The translations under genes were made by a program, and so were the position numbers. From IMG/VR virus record IMGVR_UViG_3300008255_000272, positions 1 through 35,788 of that record: 35,788 bases of DNA. The stretch is one strand, 5' to 3'. The stretch is from a virus (lineage: Duplodnaviria > Caudoviricetes). Within the stretch, counting starts at the first letter, position 1. Each line of letters opens with the position of its first letter. Under the pieces are notes generated by a model. It made no database searches. It was given only the letters and a program-made list of their open reading frames with translations, and was not told where the DNA came from. This document shows positions 4,927 to 10,432 of this stretch, one piece after another.

Positions 4927-5082
4927 ATGGATGAATTCTGTCCAAAGTGTGGTGATGAACTGTACGACAATGGAAATAAATTCGAATGTGAGTGTGGGTT
5001 TAGAGTGAGTTGTAAATTATTTCTCGGAATGGCACAGCCAAAAAGAAAGCTCGACAATCAGGAATATTTAAGTAGTTTGTAG
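4927..5082 (+). CDS. Small zinc-ribbon protein
   Basis: MDEFCPKCG...CECG. Confidence 0.6.
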   Translation: MDEFCPKCGDELYDNGNKFECECGFRVSCKLFLGMAQPKRKLDNQEYLSSL

Positions 5083-5694
5083 AACTTCGTTACACAATTG
5101 TTCAGGAATCATTGAGCGTTCATAAGAGCCTTTTCTTCCTTGAGTTCCAGTCTTACTTCCACGAGGTGCGGATACATGACAAGGCATACCATTTTTACAC
5201 ATCGGTTTTGGAATCCATTTTTCGTTATTAGTCCAAATATCAGTAGGTTTCATTCTTTCATCTCCATACTGGCAATATGTAATTGTGTGTCTAATAGGCA
5301 AAAGTTTGACAACATCTAATTTTCTTAAAACTCCACGAGGATTTTCTATATACCAAATCAAATTTGGATTTAACTTTTGATAATAATCTATAATCTCAAT
5401 AGTTTTTTGTACTAACTTCATACCCAACAAAGCTCCTTCTGTTTTTGGCTCATACCCCCTATAACCTCCACCCCAATGTGTGCCAATAGAAGCAACACTG
5501 AAAGAAGTACAAGGAGGTGAAGCCCAAATCACATCAGGAATGAAAGGCACATTTTTATAATCAAAATCCAAAATATCAACGACATAATCAATCCTTCCAA
5601 ATTGTTCAATATCACTAGAAAACGATACCCCCCCCATTTGCTCAGTGGCTTTTCCTATCGATCTACTTCCTGCGAATAATTCAAGAACTTTCAT
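5068..5694 (-). CDS. DNA cytosine-5 methyltransferase (short phage type)
   Basis: Start reassigned to MKVLELFAG (motif I); ASPPCT (motif IV, catalytic PC); IENP (motif VI). Confidence 0.9.
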   Translation of the reverse strand: MKVLELFAGSRSIGKATEQMGGVSFSSDIEQFGRIDYVVDILDFDYKNVPFIPDVIWASPPCTSFSVASIGTHWGGGYRGYEPKTEGALLGMKLVQKTIEIIDYYQKLNPNLIWYIENPRGVLRKLDVVKLLPIRHTITYCQYGDERMKPTDIWTNNEKWIPKPMCKNGMPCHVSAPRGSKTGTQGRKGSYERSMIPEQLCNEVLQTT

Positions 5695-5695
5695 G

Positions 5696-5890
5696 TTAAT
5701 TAAAAGGATTATAATGTTTTGAACATTGATAGCCATGTTTGTGTTCGCAAAGCCCATTGTCATAAAAACATTTTTGACAATGAGGAACATTTGATTCTTC
5801 GCTGGAATTGAATTCATTTGAAAAATCATGTTCACAATCGAACCCTTCTCCACACACAGCACAATCTAATTTTGTTTTAACTTCTTTCAT
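5696..5890 (-). CDS. Cys/His-rich small protein
   Basis: CAVC, CEH, CQKC and CEH motifs; coupled to neighbouring genes. Confidence 0.6.
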   Translation of the reverse strand: MKEVKTKLDCAVCGEGFDCEHDFSNEFNSSEESNVPHCQKCFYDNGLCEHKHGYQCSKHYNPFN

Positions 5891-6432
5891 AATTTTCTTT
5901 TAGCAAAGCGTGAAGGTTTGCAATCAGTACAAATCGGCTGATAATTGTCCTTGTTAAATATTGCTTCATCTTTCATTGCTTCATTGATTGTAAGAATCCT
6001 TTTTTTATTTAAATAGCAAGGAATGTTAAATAGACATCGCACAAATAATGGATAAATAGTTCGTGGATGATCTTTCTTAAATTGTTTGCGAGTGGGGAAT
6101 TGGTGTTTGCATTCAGAGCATGTGTTCTTGTGAGCTTCCAATACATCCTCCTTTAACAACTCGTGCTTCAGAGTCTTTCGGACCTTGTTGAATAGTAAAA
6201 CATCTTTGGCTTCTTTATATCCTCCATCGAAATCTACATTTATATTATCACTAGGTTTTACGCTAGACTTTTTCTTTTGTTTTACAGTATCCAATGATGT
6301 GTATTTTTCATATAGTTCCTCAATCACTTTTGTTTGAAATAGACTTTTTGCGTTACCAAAAATGACTTCATCCTCTTCGGACATCTTTCCATCTAATCGG
6401 ATATTATTCAATTTTGTGTATTTTTCATCCAT
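5887..6432 (-). CDS. Hypothetical protein with degenerate HNH-like zinc site
   Basis: CSEC...NYQPICTDC matches the HNH treble-clef spacing, but canonical His residues are not evident. Confidence 0.55.
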   Translation of the reverse strand: MDEKYTKLNNIRLDGKMSEEDEVIFGNAKSLFQTKVIEELYEKYTSLDTVKQKKKSSVKPSDNINVDFDGGYKEAKDVLLFNKVRKTLKHELLKEDVLEAHKNTCSECKHQFPTRKQFKKDHPRTIYPLFVRCLFNIPCYLNKKRILTINEAMKDEAIFNKDNYQPICTDCKPSRFAKRKL

Positions 6433-6449
6433 TTTTTGTAGGGGTTGCC

Positions 6450-6556
6450 GGCTCTAGGGAGTGGCTTAGAGCCAGATTCCAGTTCGGCTTTGTTCTTCAA
6501 GCTTCTTGCAAGGGGTTTACTACCCTAAGGGTAGTTCCCCTCTGCTAGAGCTGAAC
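6450..6556 (+). other. Nested inverted repeats / stem-loops upstream of terS
   Basis: GGCTCTAG/TTAGAGCC (6450-6473); GTTCGGCTTT/AGAGCTGAAC (6482-6556) enclosing AGGGG/CCCCT and the palindrome ACTACCCT-A-AGGGTAGT (6519-6535). Confidence 0.7.
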
Positions 6557-6683
6557 ATATAGCCAGTTTATACTTTCCTTATCGGAATTGCAAGTGGGAA
6601 GTGAGGTCATACAATATAAAATTTGGATTGTCAAAAACTGCGTTTGTTTCTTGACTATTTGTTTTTTGTGTTATTATTAATGC

Positions 6684-7133
6684 ATGGAAAAAGAAACTAC
6701 TAAAAAGAAAAGAGGTCATGAAACAACTTACACTGATGCTTACAATAAGAAAGCAAAAGAGTATTTGCAAAACAGCGTTGATGTTGTTACTGAGTTTCAT
6801 AAAACTCGTGGTGAGAAAAGCGATTCTTACGAAAGAATTATTGATGTGAAAATTCCGTCAGTTGCCGGTCTTGCAATTTATTTGAAGGTTGCGAGATCAA
6901 CTATTTACAAATGGGCAGATGAACAGCCTAATTTCTCGGACACTTTGGAGCAAATTCTTGCGACACAAGAGGAAATTTTGACTTCTAATGGGCTTGGTGG
7001 ACAGTATAGTCCGGTGATTACAAAACTGATGCTTTCAAACAATCATGGTTATAAAGAAAAAACTGAAACTGATGTGACTTCTAAAGGAGAAAGAATTTCC
7101 GGCTTTAATTATATTGATCCGACAAAAAAGTAG
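6684..7133 (+). CDS. terS: Terminase small subunit (P22 gp3-like DNA-packaging protein)
   Basis: PSVAGLAIYLKVARSTIYKW HTH; GLGGQYSPVITKLMLSNNHGY; DVTSKGE C-terminal motif; upstream of terL. Confidence 0.88.
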   Translation: MEKETTKKKRGHETTYTDAYNKKAKEYLQNSVDVVTEFHKTRGEKSDSYERIIDVKIPSVAGLAIYLKVARSTIYKWADEQPNFSDTLEQILATQEEILTSNGLGGQYSPVITKLMLSNNHGYKEKTETDVTSKGERISGFNYIDPTKK

Positions 7134-7190
7134 TTTTATCATCACAATAAGAAAGGATTTTGTTATCACAAATCTCGTAAAGGTGGTAAA

Positions 7191-7424
7191 ATGTATTTAT
7201 TGATTTTTATGCCGGACCATCCTTTTGCAACCAAGAAGGGTTATGTCAGAGAGCATAGATTGATTATCGAAAATAATGTCGGTCGACTTTTATTAAAAAA
7301 CGAAGTTGTTCATCACAAAGACGGAAACACTTTAAATAATTCTTTGGACAATCTCGAACTAATGACTGCAAGTGAACATTCTCGTTTCCATGTCAAAGAT
7401 AATGTTCATAAGCGGTGGGAATAA
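7191..7424 (+). CDS. HNH endonuclease (HNH_3 type)
   Basis: PDHP...GYVREHRL...EVVHHKDGNTLNNSLDNLELMTASEH. Confidence 0.9.
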   Translation: MYLLIFMPDHPFATKKGYVREHRLIIENNVGRLLLKNEVVHHKDGNTLNNSLDNLELMTASEHSRFHVKDNVHKRWE

Positions 7425-7441
7425 ACTCCCTCTTGCATCCG

Positions 7442-7549
7442 ATGGCGAAACCAACAATTTCCCCAACATTGAAACAGCATTCTGCGTATCAATACCTCCA
7501 AGACGATACAACAAAGTATCTACTTTTTGGCGGTGGTGCGGGGGGGGGT
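7442..7549 (+). CDS. terL: Terminase large subunit, N-terminal segment (36 aa, ends inside Walker A)
   Basis: Manual translation MAKPTISPTLKQHSAYQYLQDDTTKYLLFGGGAGGG, then TGA at 7550; includes the PTxKQ adenine-binding motif. Confidence 0.85.
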
Positions 7550-7559
7550 TGACTAAACT

Positions 7560-8915
7560 GGAAAATCGTGGCTTGGTTGTGAATGGTTGATCACTAATTG
7601 TTATTTCTATCCGGAGTCAAAATGGTTTATTGGAAGAAACGAATTGTCACGACTGATGAAGTCTAGTTTCATCACATTTAAAAAAGTCTGTAAATATCAT
7701 GGAATTCCGGACACTGATTGGAAATTAAATGGTCAGTATAATTATATTGAATTTACAAATGGATCTCGAATCGACTTACTCGATGTTGCGTATAAACCTT
7801 CTGATCCTGATTATGAAAGATTCGGATCACTTGAATACACTGGAGGATGGATTGAAGAAGCAGGTGAGGTTGAATTCAAATCATTCGATGTTCTGAAATC
7901 TCGTATTGGAAGACACATGAATAAAGATTATGGAGTGATGTCAAAATTGCTTCTAACTTGTAACCCTAACAAAGGGTGGTTGTATCGTGTGTTCTATAAA
8001 CCATATAAAGATAAAACACTTCCAGACAATTATCGTTTTCTGCAATCATTATATTCGGACAATGAATACACAGCAGATGAATATGAAGATAACTTGAATG
8101 AAATTTCCGATGATAAAACACGAAAGCGTTTGAAGCTCGGAGATTGGGAATACGATACTGATGCAATGAATATTTTTCATTACGATTCTTTGGTTGATGT
8201 ATTTACAAATACAGTCATAAAAACTGGTCAGAAATATTTGGTTGTCGATGTCGCAGATGATGGAGCAGACAAAACTGTTTTCTCGTTTTGGGAAGATCTT
8301 GAAGAATACAAGCGAGAAGAATTTTCTGGATTCAATACTGATAATATTATCGACAAAATTCGTGAGTACGCATCGGCTGAAAGAATTCCTTATTCACATA
8401 TTTGTGTTGATGCGATCGGTGTTGGAACAGGAGTTGCAAAGAGTTCAATGCTGAATGGTATAATTGGTTACAAATCTTCGTATGCACCAATCAAGACTGA
8501 TGCAAATATTGTTGAGCTTCCAAATGTTGGATCATTAAGTCATGCACCAAAGTATGTTTCAGATTATAAAAATTTGAGATGTCAGTGTGTATTTACTTTA
8601 GGAGATTTGGTGAATAGACACTTGGTTGCTTCACGAGTTCCAGATAGTCAACGAGATACAATTATTCAAGAGTTATCACAATATAAAGATGTGACAGTGC
8701 CGGACCAGAAAAGAACTGCGACTTCAAAAGAAGAAATTAAAGATGCTATTGGAAGAAGTCCTGATCATTCCGACACTTGGCTCATGAGAATGTATTTCGA
8801 GATTCGTGCTGAGATGGTGAAAGATGATTCAATCGAAAGAGTGGAAATTAAAAATAAACAAATTCAAATTCTCAACAGAAATCGAAACAACATTGTTTCC
8901 AACTCAACAAGGTAG
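7560..8915 (+). CDS. terL: Terminase large subunit, main segment (begins GKSWLGCEWL)
   Basis: Frame open from 7557; Walker B WIEEAGE, coupling motif LTCNP, nuclease motifs VDVADDGAD, CVDAIGVG and RSPDHSD. Confidence 0.92.
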   Translation, partial: GKSWLGCEWLITNCYFYPESKWFIGRNELSRLMKSSFITFKKVCKYHGIPDTDWKLNGQYNYIEFTNGSRIDLLDVAYKPSDPDYERFGSLEYTGGWIEEAGEVEFKSFDVLKSRIGRHMNKDYGVMSKLLLTCNPNKGWLYRVFYKPYKDKTLPDNYRFLQSLYSDNEYTADEYEDNLNEISDDKTRKRLKLGDWEYDTDAMNIFHYDSLVDVFTNTVIKTGQKYLVVDVADDGADKTVFSFWEDLEEYKREEFSGFNTDNIIDKIREYASAERIPYSHICVDAIGVGTGVAKSSMLNGIIGYKSSYAPIKTDANIVELPNVGSLSHAPKYVSDYKNLRCQCVFTLGDLVNRHLVASRVPDSQRDTIIQELSQYKDVTVPDQKRTATSKEEIKDAIGRSPDHSDTWLMRMYFEIRAEMVKDDSIERVEIKNKQIQILNRNRNNIVSNSTR

Positions 8916-8924
8916 TGGTATAAT
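8916..8924 (+). promoter_or_regulatory. Extended -10 promoter TGGTATAAT
   Basis: TGnTATAAT recurs in intergenic positions at 12920, 17917, 20107, 23560 and 26106. Confidence 0.65.
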
Positions 8925-8962
8925 TTTATTAACATTTTTATTAACTAATTATTAAAAACAAA

Positions 8963-10432
8963 ATGGCAAACATTAGTGGGGCAAAATATGATAACCGAAC
9001 AGCTTCAGGTATCGTAAAAAGTGGTGTAGGAAAAGTTTTCGGAATTATTGTAAATTCACACACATCAGGAACATTCGCCTTGAATGATGGATTGAGTTCA
9101 AACGATGAGTCAGCCAACAAAGCGGTTGTGACTCTTACTTTGACAGGAGCTATTACAGCAGGAGTTCATGCAGAAAGCAAAGTGACAGTTGACACTATTG
9201 CAAACGGAAATGAAATCGAAATTGGTGACATTACATATACTGCGGTGACAGCTCTATCAACAGAGCCGGCAGTTCCTTATGAAGTTTTGATTGGAGCAAG
9301 TGATGCAACTTTCTTGGACAATCTAAAATCTGCTATTAACGGAACAGCAGGAGCAGGTACAACTTATTCAACAGGAACAGTTGCTCATCCTTTGGTGATT
9401 GCAACAACAAATGCTGATGCAACTCAAATTGTTGTTTCAAGAACTGTTGGAATTGGAAACAATGATGTTGTAACAACTGGAACAGCAACTCGTGTTGTTT
9501 GGGAAGACACAACTCTTGGAGGTGGAACAGGAGATTCAACAGCCGGAGTTGATGGCGAAACAGTCACAATTTCAACTCTTGAATTTGCAGAATCAGTTTT
9601 GACAGCCAATGGAACTATTTCAGATGGTGATGAAATCACAATTGGAGATAAAACTTATGTTGCGAAAACTGCTCTTTCAAGTGCAGTCCGACCAAACGAA
9701 GTTTTGATTGGTGTATCAACAGCAGTGTTTCTTGATAACTTGAAATCAGCTATTAATGGATCAGCCGGAGAAGGAACAACTTATTCAACAGGAACAGTTG
9801 CACATCAATTTGTTGAAGCTACTACAAATACAGATACAACTCAAAAAATCGTTGCGAGAATTGCAGGAGAAGATCAAAACACTTTGGCAACAACTGAAAC
9901 ATCAGCGAGTCTGTCTTGGGCGGATACAACTATTGGTGGAGGAACAGGAAATTCAAACCCTGCTCACAACACAGTTGATTCTCAAACATATACTTTCGTA
10001 ACTGCTCTTTCAGAAACATCTGGAGCGACAGCAGTTCCAAATCAAATCTTGTTTGGAGCATCTAGTGCAACAGCATTGGATAACTTGAAACTAGCTATTA
10101 CAGGGGGAGCTACTGAAGGAACAGAATACTCAACTGGATCAAGCCAAACTTCACTTGTGACAGCTACAACAAATGCGGACACAACTCAAATTCTTGAAGC
10201 ATTGTTTGCAGGAGTTCAAGGAAATTACATTAATGTTTCAGACACAATTGCAAACGGAGCGTTTGGAACAGGAACATTAATTGGTGGAGTTGATGCAACA
10301 ACTATTATTACAACAACATGGACACTCGCTTCTGGTCCTCAAATGATTACATTTCCAGAGCCTATCGAATTTTACACAGGTCTTTACCTTGTTGTTGGTG
10401 GAACACTTGATTGCACAGTTCTTTACGCATAA
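8963..10432 (+). CDS. Virion spike/decoration protein with three internal repeat domains
   Basis: Three copies of (F/A)LDNLKxAIxG..GxxYSTG...ATTNxDxTQ; Thr/Gly/Ala-rich; between terL and portal. Confidence 0.65.
   Translation: MANISGAKYDNRTASGIVKSGVGKVFGIIVNSHTSGTFALNDGLSSNDESANKAVVTLTLTGAITAGVHAESKVTVDTIANGNEIEIGDITYTAVTALSTEPAVPYEVLIGASDATFLDNLKSAINGTAGAGTTYSTGTVAHPLVIATTNADATQIVVSRTVGIGNNDVVTTGTATRVVWEDTTLGGGTGDSTAGVDGETVTISTLEFAESVLTANGTISDGDEITIGDKTYVAKTALSSAVRPNEVLIGVSTAVFLDNLKSAINGSAGEGTTYSTGTVAHQFVEATTNTDTTQKIVARIAGEDQNTLATTETSASLSWADTTIGGGTGNSNPAHNTVDSQTYTFVTALSETSGATAVPNQILFGASSATALDNLKLAITGGATEGTEYSTGSSQTSLVTATTNADTTQILEALFAGVQGNYINVSDTIANGAFGTGTLIGGVDATTIITTTWTLASGPQMITFPEPIEFYTGLYLVVGGTLDCTVLYA

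Follow-up and report, generated by a model that had tools for sequence, protein, structure and literature searches.

To our knowledge, proven natural translational bypass is nearly limited to gene 60 of phage T4 and the mitochondria of Magnusiomyces. In gene 60, a 50-nt bypass goes together with the HNH element MobA, and the gap is reported to block self-nicking and protect from the nuclease (Manning and Atkins, 10.1101/2022.08.31.505936; statements on this preprint and on the papers cited below refer to the parts of their text that were available). Pairing of the exiting mRNA in "driver" stem-loops of gene 60 has been proposed to push the ribosome (Wills 2024, 10.1101/2024.12.09.627546). Bypass of short blocks (7-10 nt) has also been described in the terminase genes of phiHau3, StrepC.1 and S. 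catenulae (Antonov 2023, PMC10732093). A short bypass proposed for a Streptomyces phage terminase was also mentioned in the original prediction for the present locus. For Hau3, mass spectrometry in E. coli demonstrated bypass when UAA replaced UUA; for these actinophages a rare UUA trigger, an internal Shine-Dalgarno sequence and a regulatory role were proposed, and the available text mentions no endonuclease. On our reading of the printed sequences, the first Hau3 junction (KGWG/KDP) looks like the G/K step of a Walker A motif. Synthetic stop-hops, in which 9 nt are used for one amino acid, are low-level and unassisted, and no natural in-frame stop-hop was known in 2016 (Atkins 2016, PMC5009743, in the part available).

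Here we describe a large terminase gene (terL) whose Walker A motif, or P-loop, is split by a 13-nt gap in a groundwater phage record of 35,788 nt, the whole of which was analysed and is called the window below. Comparison with related genes indicates that the gap is real, selected and mobile, and that it is most likely decoded by a short ribosomal hop. The reading favored here, with a probability of about 0.75 that extends to the hop itself, is that a mobile HNH cassette sits at the P-loop with its own terL 5′ end, that the gap likely blocks self-cutting, and that ribosomes likely stop-hop across it.

The locus works like MobA/gene 60 without belonging to it and is a non-homologous, miniature counterpart. 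Common to both are an HNH gene linked to and lying in an essential gene, an element-borne new copy of the N-terminal target flank followed by the gap, Gly take-off (here predicted) with an immediate stop, followed in 10 of 13 alleles here by a matching or synonymous landing codon and in three by an unmatched one, repeated independent, polyphyletic insertion, and decay of the nuclease while the gap stays. In contrast, the target is the terL Walker A motif rather than the topoisomerase large subunit, the gap measures 5-13 nt rather than about 50, the nuclease is an HNH_3 protein of ∼150-160 aa with a Cys-rich N terminus rather than the 269-279 aa of MobA, and Ala is used for take-off as well. 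There is no take-off stem-loop, the structure is instead a predicted 95-nt-range helix with the start region, and it is the upstream remnant that is discarded. Driver stem-loops are local, whereas here one long-range helix has the translation start region as its 5′ strand. The gaps resemble those of Hau3 terL in length and position, but they start with TGA, TAG or TAA and not with the UUA of the Hau3 type. The word "terminase" occurs 0 times in the available text of 10.1101/2022.08.31.505936, and no paper on this terL gap/HNH family was found in the open literature; for the novelty of the family, the metagenomic tables accompanying the 2022 preprint may also be relevant.

Interruption of the terL Walker A Motif

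Features of the locus are collected in Table 1. Read from its ATG, terL begins MAKPT...KYLLFGGGAGGG up to the GGT codon that precedes the gap, and the +1 frame that follows the gap reads GKSW... over 451 codons and ends at TAG 8913-8915. This +1 frame matched TerL in profile searches (phrog_2, E 1e-25; Terminase_3, E 1.5e-9). The earlier description of FGGGAGGG, TGA plus 7 nt, and GKSW is confirmed. Exact removal of the gap gives a canonical loop, here as in all 13 interrupted alleles known, and a predicted TerL of 486 aa compared with 485 aa in the intact relative L006, whose TerL had no sequence match in the PDB. The span from Phe to Lys is 37 nt in the window and 24 nt in 14 of 14 intact relatives aligned, and the junction peptide predicted for a hop, with no extra residues, is YLLFGGGAGGGK.

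Table 1. Positions in the window of terL, its predicted recoding elements and nearby genes
Feature	Position	Strand	Remarks
DNA methyltransferase	5068..5862	-	C8 run at 5628
terS (small terminase subunit)	6684..7133	+	PF16677, E 9e-20
HNH_3 endonuclease, decayed	7134..7424	+	96-codon open frame; PF13392, E 6e-14
Leader strand of predicted long-range helix	7424..7439	+	pyrimidine-rich (C-rich); -18 to -3 from terL AUG
terL segment 1	7442..7552	+	36 codons, ending FGGGAGGG + TGA stop
P-loop strand of predicted helix	7535..7550	+	G-rich; ends on U of stop codon
Putative take-off codon GGT (Gly)	7547..7549	+	role predicted
13-nt gap	7550..7562	+	TGA 7550-7552, CTAAACT, predicted landing codon GGA 7560-7562
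terL segment 2	7563..8915	+	450 codons from Walker A lysine (AAA 7563)

The junction was found unchanged in independent assemblies. IMG/VR contig L001 carries it identically, and contigs of four of seven aquifer runs (X2, X4, X5 and X8) bridge it with 0 differences; contigs of X3, X6 and X7 did not cover the junction, and the aquifer runs may represent one campaign.

In the window, terL is single-copy and is accompanied by capsid and tail genes in addition to terS and the HNH frame. The last codons of terS read GFNYIDPTKK, and the gene is shorter than in intact relatives, in which terS overlaps the terL start. The terS end at 7115-7133 (IDPTKK and stop) resembles the start of intact terL (I-x-P-T-x-K-Q) and is perhaps a fused trace of a former terL 5′ end, the match not being significant.

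A bacterial host is suggested by a peptidoglycan-binding protein encoded in the window. The TerL sequence shares 69% identity with a protein from a WWE3 genome, encoded on a 2.7-kb contig, and the capsid protein is 80% identical to one from the Parcubacteria group and 78% identical to one named Blastocatellia. Matches at E<=1e-30 occurred in 5 of 401 genomes of the phylum to which G001 belongs; G001, G003, L304 and L305 have an intact P-loop, whereas none was found by motif in L303. Loss of bL9 raises hopping (PMC6815119, in the part available). A host lacking bL9 was considered and is unsupported, L9 being missing only in G001, one of five incomplete genomes. Shine-Dalgarno-like words precede 4 of 33 gene starts in the window, the leaders being A/T-rich, and a tRNA search of it found no tRNA genes.

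Interrupted Alleles in the TerL Family

Thirteen distinct Walker A inserts of 2-13 nt were identified in this TerL family, that of the window and 12 others (Table 2). Ten alleles came from scans anchored on conserved residues after the loop, in which no stop was required; an HNH-only pattern contributed L316, a stop-requiring pattern yielded L322 and L330, and one further search added none. When loci were scanned with no selection of alleles, 4 of 119 (3 alleles) were interrupted. Left out of all counts were L003 (contig starting at the Lys), L286 (chimeric-looking), and L278 and L156 (short flank); six chance matches that were not terminases were also removed, and non-terL rows of the later scan were ignored.

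Table 2. Interrupted Walker A alleles
Allele	Take-off	Stop	Extra length (nt)	Landing
Window	GGT	TGA	13	GGA
L149	GGT	TGA	8	GGT
L142	GGT	TGA	8	GGC
L170	GGT	TAA	9	GGT
L150 and L330	GGT	TAA	6	GGC
L151 and L316	GCT	TAG	5	GCT
L146	GCC	TAG	5	GCC
L322	GCC	TAG	5	GCT
L140	GCT	TAG	5	GTA
L160	GCG	TAG	6	TAG
L152	GGG	TAG	2	GTA

As in programmed translational bypass, an in-frame stop comes immediately, and it does so in 13 of 13 inserts, a random triplet of the same composition being a stop in 7%. The landing codon just before the canonical resume codon is identical to the take-off codon in five alleles and synonymous in another five, four of the latter being U/C third-position swaps. The GGU-to-GGA pair of the window is the only U-to-A case, and GGU and GGA are not normally read by one tRNA. 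No matched landing codon is present in L140 (GCU to GUA), L160 (GCG to UAG) and L152. The take-off site itself shifts between alleles from the third to the last Gly of the loop. L150, L170 and L330 are candidates for natural in-frame stop-hops, and the GGU UAA GGC of L150 and L330 is exactly the layout of the synthetic stop-hop (PMC5009743, in the part available).

Several loci depart from the common pattern. L152/L155 have a 2-nt insert (GGG TA GGA GGA AAA) with neither HNH gene nor leader helix, and after a matched 5-nt hop the loop would lack one Gly; they are possibly an end state or use a different mechanism. In L160/L162 an in-frame double TAG follows Ala, and a perfect GCG is present at +10 but out of frame, which makes this pair the best test case for landing without pairing. 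In L012 and L013, just before the match start (L012:3001), intein-like sequence occupies the same Walker A motif and ends ...VVTHN before TWLGCEW, which would make it a mobile element of another type at this site. In L286, from a Saccharibacteria bin, a transporter-like frame on the reverse strand near 1804 continues directly into GGGAGGGKTWLGCEW at the contig end, the result either of misassembly or of recombination at the P-loop. TerL residues 197-451 span 1620 nt in L020:3001-4620, ∼850 nt above need, with an intein or intron in the nuclease half as a possible cause.

Association with an HNH Endonuclease Gene

The HNH gene adjoining terL at 7134-7424 had not figured in the earlier account of the locus. 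In the window it has an ATG at 7191 (77 aa) and has lost its N-terminal third, the Cys-rich ∼55-60 aa of full-length relatives. With a profile built from six HNH proteins of the family, a strong match directly 5′ of terL was obtained for 11 of 13 interrupted and 0 of 52 intact alleles (42, plus 10 added with the later alleles), giving a Fisher p of 9e-11 in which kinship is ignored. Of the two exceptions, L170 retains a six-residue HNH tail that is not significant and L152 no trace. In a scan for HNH tails, 14 of 14 loci preceded an interrupted terL, 13 of them with already-known alleles. L322 and L330, which were found after the idea was fixed, have full HNH genes (E 3e-63 and 7e-63, respectively). 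A general HNH search returned 80 loci, 73 of them without a match to this terL. The terminase-helper HNH proteins of cos phages are conserved, intact and needed together with terminase, whereas this gene is absent from the 52 intact alleles and broken in four of nine carriers read. In L165, an intact terL with the divergent loop WGAGAGSGKS is preceded by a 23-residue HNH remnant, upstream of position 2023; possibly substitution confers immunity here, or the gap has been lost.

Interrupted alleles are scattered over the TerL tree, and the inserts look independent. A quick tree with 78 rows, built from the downstream segment, requires 9 changes for the ten interrupted rows (shuffled mean, 9.7), and strong branches force six of these. 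HNH and TerL identities are uncorrelated (rho 0.16), and a riverine relative in X21 that is ∼90% identical has neither HNH gene nor insert. In L160 and L330, an old terL 5′ end that still overlaps terS stops at the Phe-Gly codons or just short of them and is followed by the HNH gene and a second terL start; the cassette therefore enters at the P-loop and brings its own terL start. No such old copy was found in the other 11 alleles, the window included. Across scattered lineages, gap and HNH gene occur together with the complementarity described below, and the nuclease decays, being truncated in the window, while gap and predicted helix persist.

Predicted Pairing of the terL Leader with P-loop Codons

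The tract just 5′ of the terL start is predicted to pair with the codons up to the stop. In the window this helix comprises 16 bp, five of them G-U, with no mismatch, and it appears in both the minimum-energy and the centroid structure, the z-score of the whole-region fold being only -2.2. A duplex of -28 kcal/mol or lower was obtained for 12 of 13 interrupted alleles (not L152) compared with 2 of 52 intact alleles, L024 and L346, neither of which is far from its own shuffles. A leader's own P-loop is its best partner in 9 of 10 rows, and the converse holds in 8 of 10 columns; 0 of 200,000 permutations were as good, although the helix register was picked by folding and local copying could yield such locus specificity. 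Third codon positions are compensated: the first Gly codon has T opposite A, C opposite G or G opposite C. Three third positions that are A in the empty relative are G in the window cassette, despite GGA being the usual Gly codon of the genome (345 of 563). The many G-U pairs favor selection at the RNA level on the + strand.

Local 5′ or 3′ hairpins near the gap are not conserved across alleles, and the small hairpin originally proposed reaches only -1.3 kcal/mol; in its place, the modeled long-range leader helix, which is new here, is kept with the gap and is locus-specific, as an RNA stimulator of bypass would be. Whether it drives the hop is, on these models, close to an even question. It is rather unlikely, and this probability is partly contained in that given above for the hop, that the hop is real with an unassisted stop-hop sufficing and the helix acting only as a repressor of terL initiation or being a by-product of the cassette. 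That the leader strand spans -20 to +4 of the AUG across alleles would suit such a role, as would the L152 gap with no helix and the 22-bp helix of L149, which is a perfect inverted copy. Against it, in 9 of 10 alleles the strict helix ends between 0 and +4 relative to the first base of the take-off codon (rho 0.60, p 0.07) although the take-off codon moves over 12 nt. The tightness of this tracking depends on helix definition: with weak extensions the end lies at 0 to +12 (rho 0.63, p 0.03), and at +7 to +12 in four alleles. Unassisted stop-hops have, moreover, been described as low-level (10.1101/2024.12.09.627546, in the part available).

Proposed Mechanism

In the favored reading, the 13-nt gap is likely the right end of a mobile homing cassette that enters terL at the P-loop and carries a terL start of its own. 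By analogy with MobA, the nuclease would cut the P-loop codons of empty alleles and the gap would protect the occupied allele, providing immunity inside a motif that is unchangeable at the protein level. Full-length TerL would be made by a hop from GGU over the gap to GGA, probably helix-aided. The ribosome would stall with the stop codon in the A site; the outer helix would nucleate on exited mRNA, zip toward the take-off codon and push the ribosome 3′; and peptidyl-tRNA would re-pair at a synonymous codon that is the recipient's own Gly codon, which would explain landing codons that are synonymous rather than identical. Pushing of the ribosome would likewise account for L140 and L160, which have no matched landing codon. 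By masking the AUG region, the same helix would prevent another ribosome from loading behind the first, or space ribosomes.

The hop that was originally proposed gains comparative support from the stop-first inserts, the 10 identical or synonymous landings and the five alleles beyond frameshift repair, and would now be helix-based rather than small-hairpin-based. For the suggestion that it sets TerL stoichiometry or timing or evades defences no evidence was found, and HNH self-immunity is a simpler reason.

Alternative Explanations

A micro-intron, in which a host or phage nuclease and a ligase would remove the gap from the mRNA at a site marked by the helix, is quite improbable. Exact removal restores the loop even in the three alleles without a matched landing codon, and the conserved helix ends near the 5′ junction. 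The gaps of 2-13 nt nevertheless share no 3′ end, and splicing needs neither an in-frame stop first nor synonymous codon pairs. A bulge-helix-bulge site, in which two bulges flank a 4-bp helix for the archaeal endonuclease, needs about 7 nt or more, so that gaps of 5-6 nt fall below it, and the peptidoglycan-binding protein argues for a bacterial host. No Rfam match was found at E<=1 in 6400-9200, and the micro-intron option of the original prediction is not supported; its view that the junctions do not fit a group I intron agrees with this search and with the gap sizes, and the same applies to group II.

Equally improbable is readthrough, frameshifting or both, giving a working TerL with 1-4 extra loop residues. 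The G9 run at 7540-7548 lies beside the gap, distant terminase-like matches have a loop one residue longer (9 codons in some), and 8 of 13 alleles have an open resume frame, where a -1 shift would give a longer loop. However, the other five alleles are beyond repair by frameshift because a stop lies in the resume frame. In the window, TGA blocks the zero frame and TAA 7554-7556, inside the CTAAACT stretch, closes the resume frame, so that no slip in the G9 run repairs terL, as had been argued from the start. In L160 and L170, readthrough of two stops would be required, and all 14 intact relatives aligned have a 24-nt loop. There is no recoded stop, since TGA, TAG and TAA all terminate long window genes (6, 6 and 20 of 32).

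Slightly less probable still is that terL is dead and that the phage persists through a helper terminase or rare DNA deletions of the gap. Among six L141-type contigs, all seven variable codons downstream of the stop are synonymous (7:0) in one population, some members of which have a frameshifted HNH gene. The HNH gene decays and terL does not. The other alleles have almost no variation, with one non-synonymous change in L166. Against sisters pN/pS is 0.07-0.21 over 0.57-0.87 (0.15-0.21 versus 0.58-0.87 for intact sisters), a signal that partly predates the inserts because they may be recent, and to that extent a dead gene would be compatible with it. Downstream frames of 412-474 codons in 13 of 13 alleles, 13 different gaps with one layout and a compensated helix with G-U pairs speak against loss of function, as does the lack of a gap-less variant among contigs of the aquifer runs (low depth).

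An assembly or sequencing artefact, to which the homopolymer adjoining the site might point, is refuted by the bridging run assemblies, the same letters in L001 and the 12 different inserts that other phages carry in the same loop.

Implications

The favored reading may extend to a portable bypass module comprising the first natural programmed stop-hops, over gaps down to five bases, with one long-range helix as an RNA "winch". This helix would zip the start region onto the take-off codons and push the ribosome over the stop, allowing landing without a matching codon, shutting out following ribosomes and having been re-tuned by compensation 12 times; this extension is tentative and somewhat less probable than its negation. 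The leader helix would make the model in which exiting-mRNA pairing drives the ribosome testable in a cassette of ∼150 nt. The 13 natural alleles amount to a ready-made mutant series that varies in gap (2-13 nt), frame (0, +1 and +2), stop, take-off residue and landing match. Such terL genes are miscalled as truncated genes or pseudogenes in viral catalogues. For homing nucleases, the cassette would represent a second, independent means of residing within invariant protein motifs, one that requires neither introns nor inteins.
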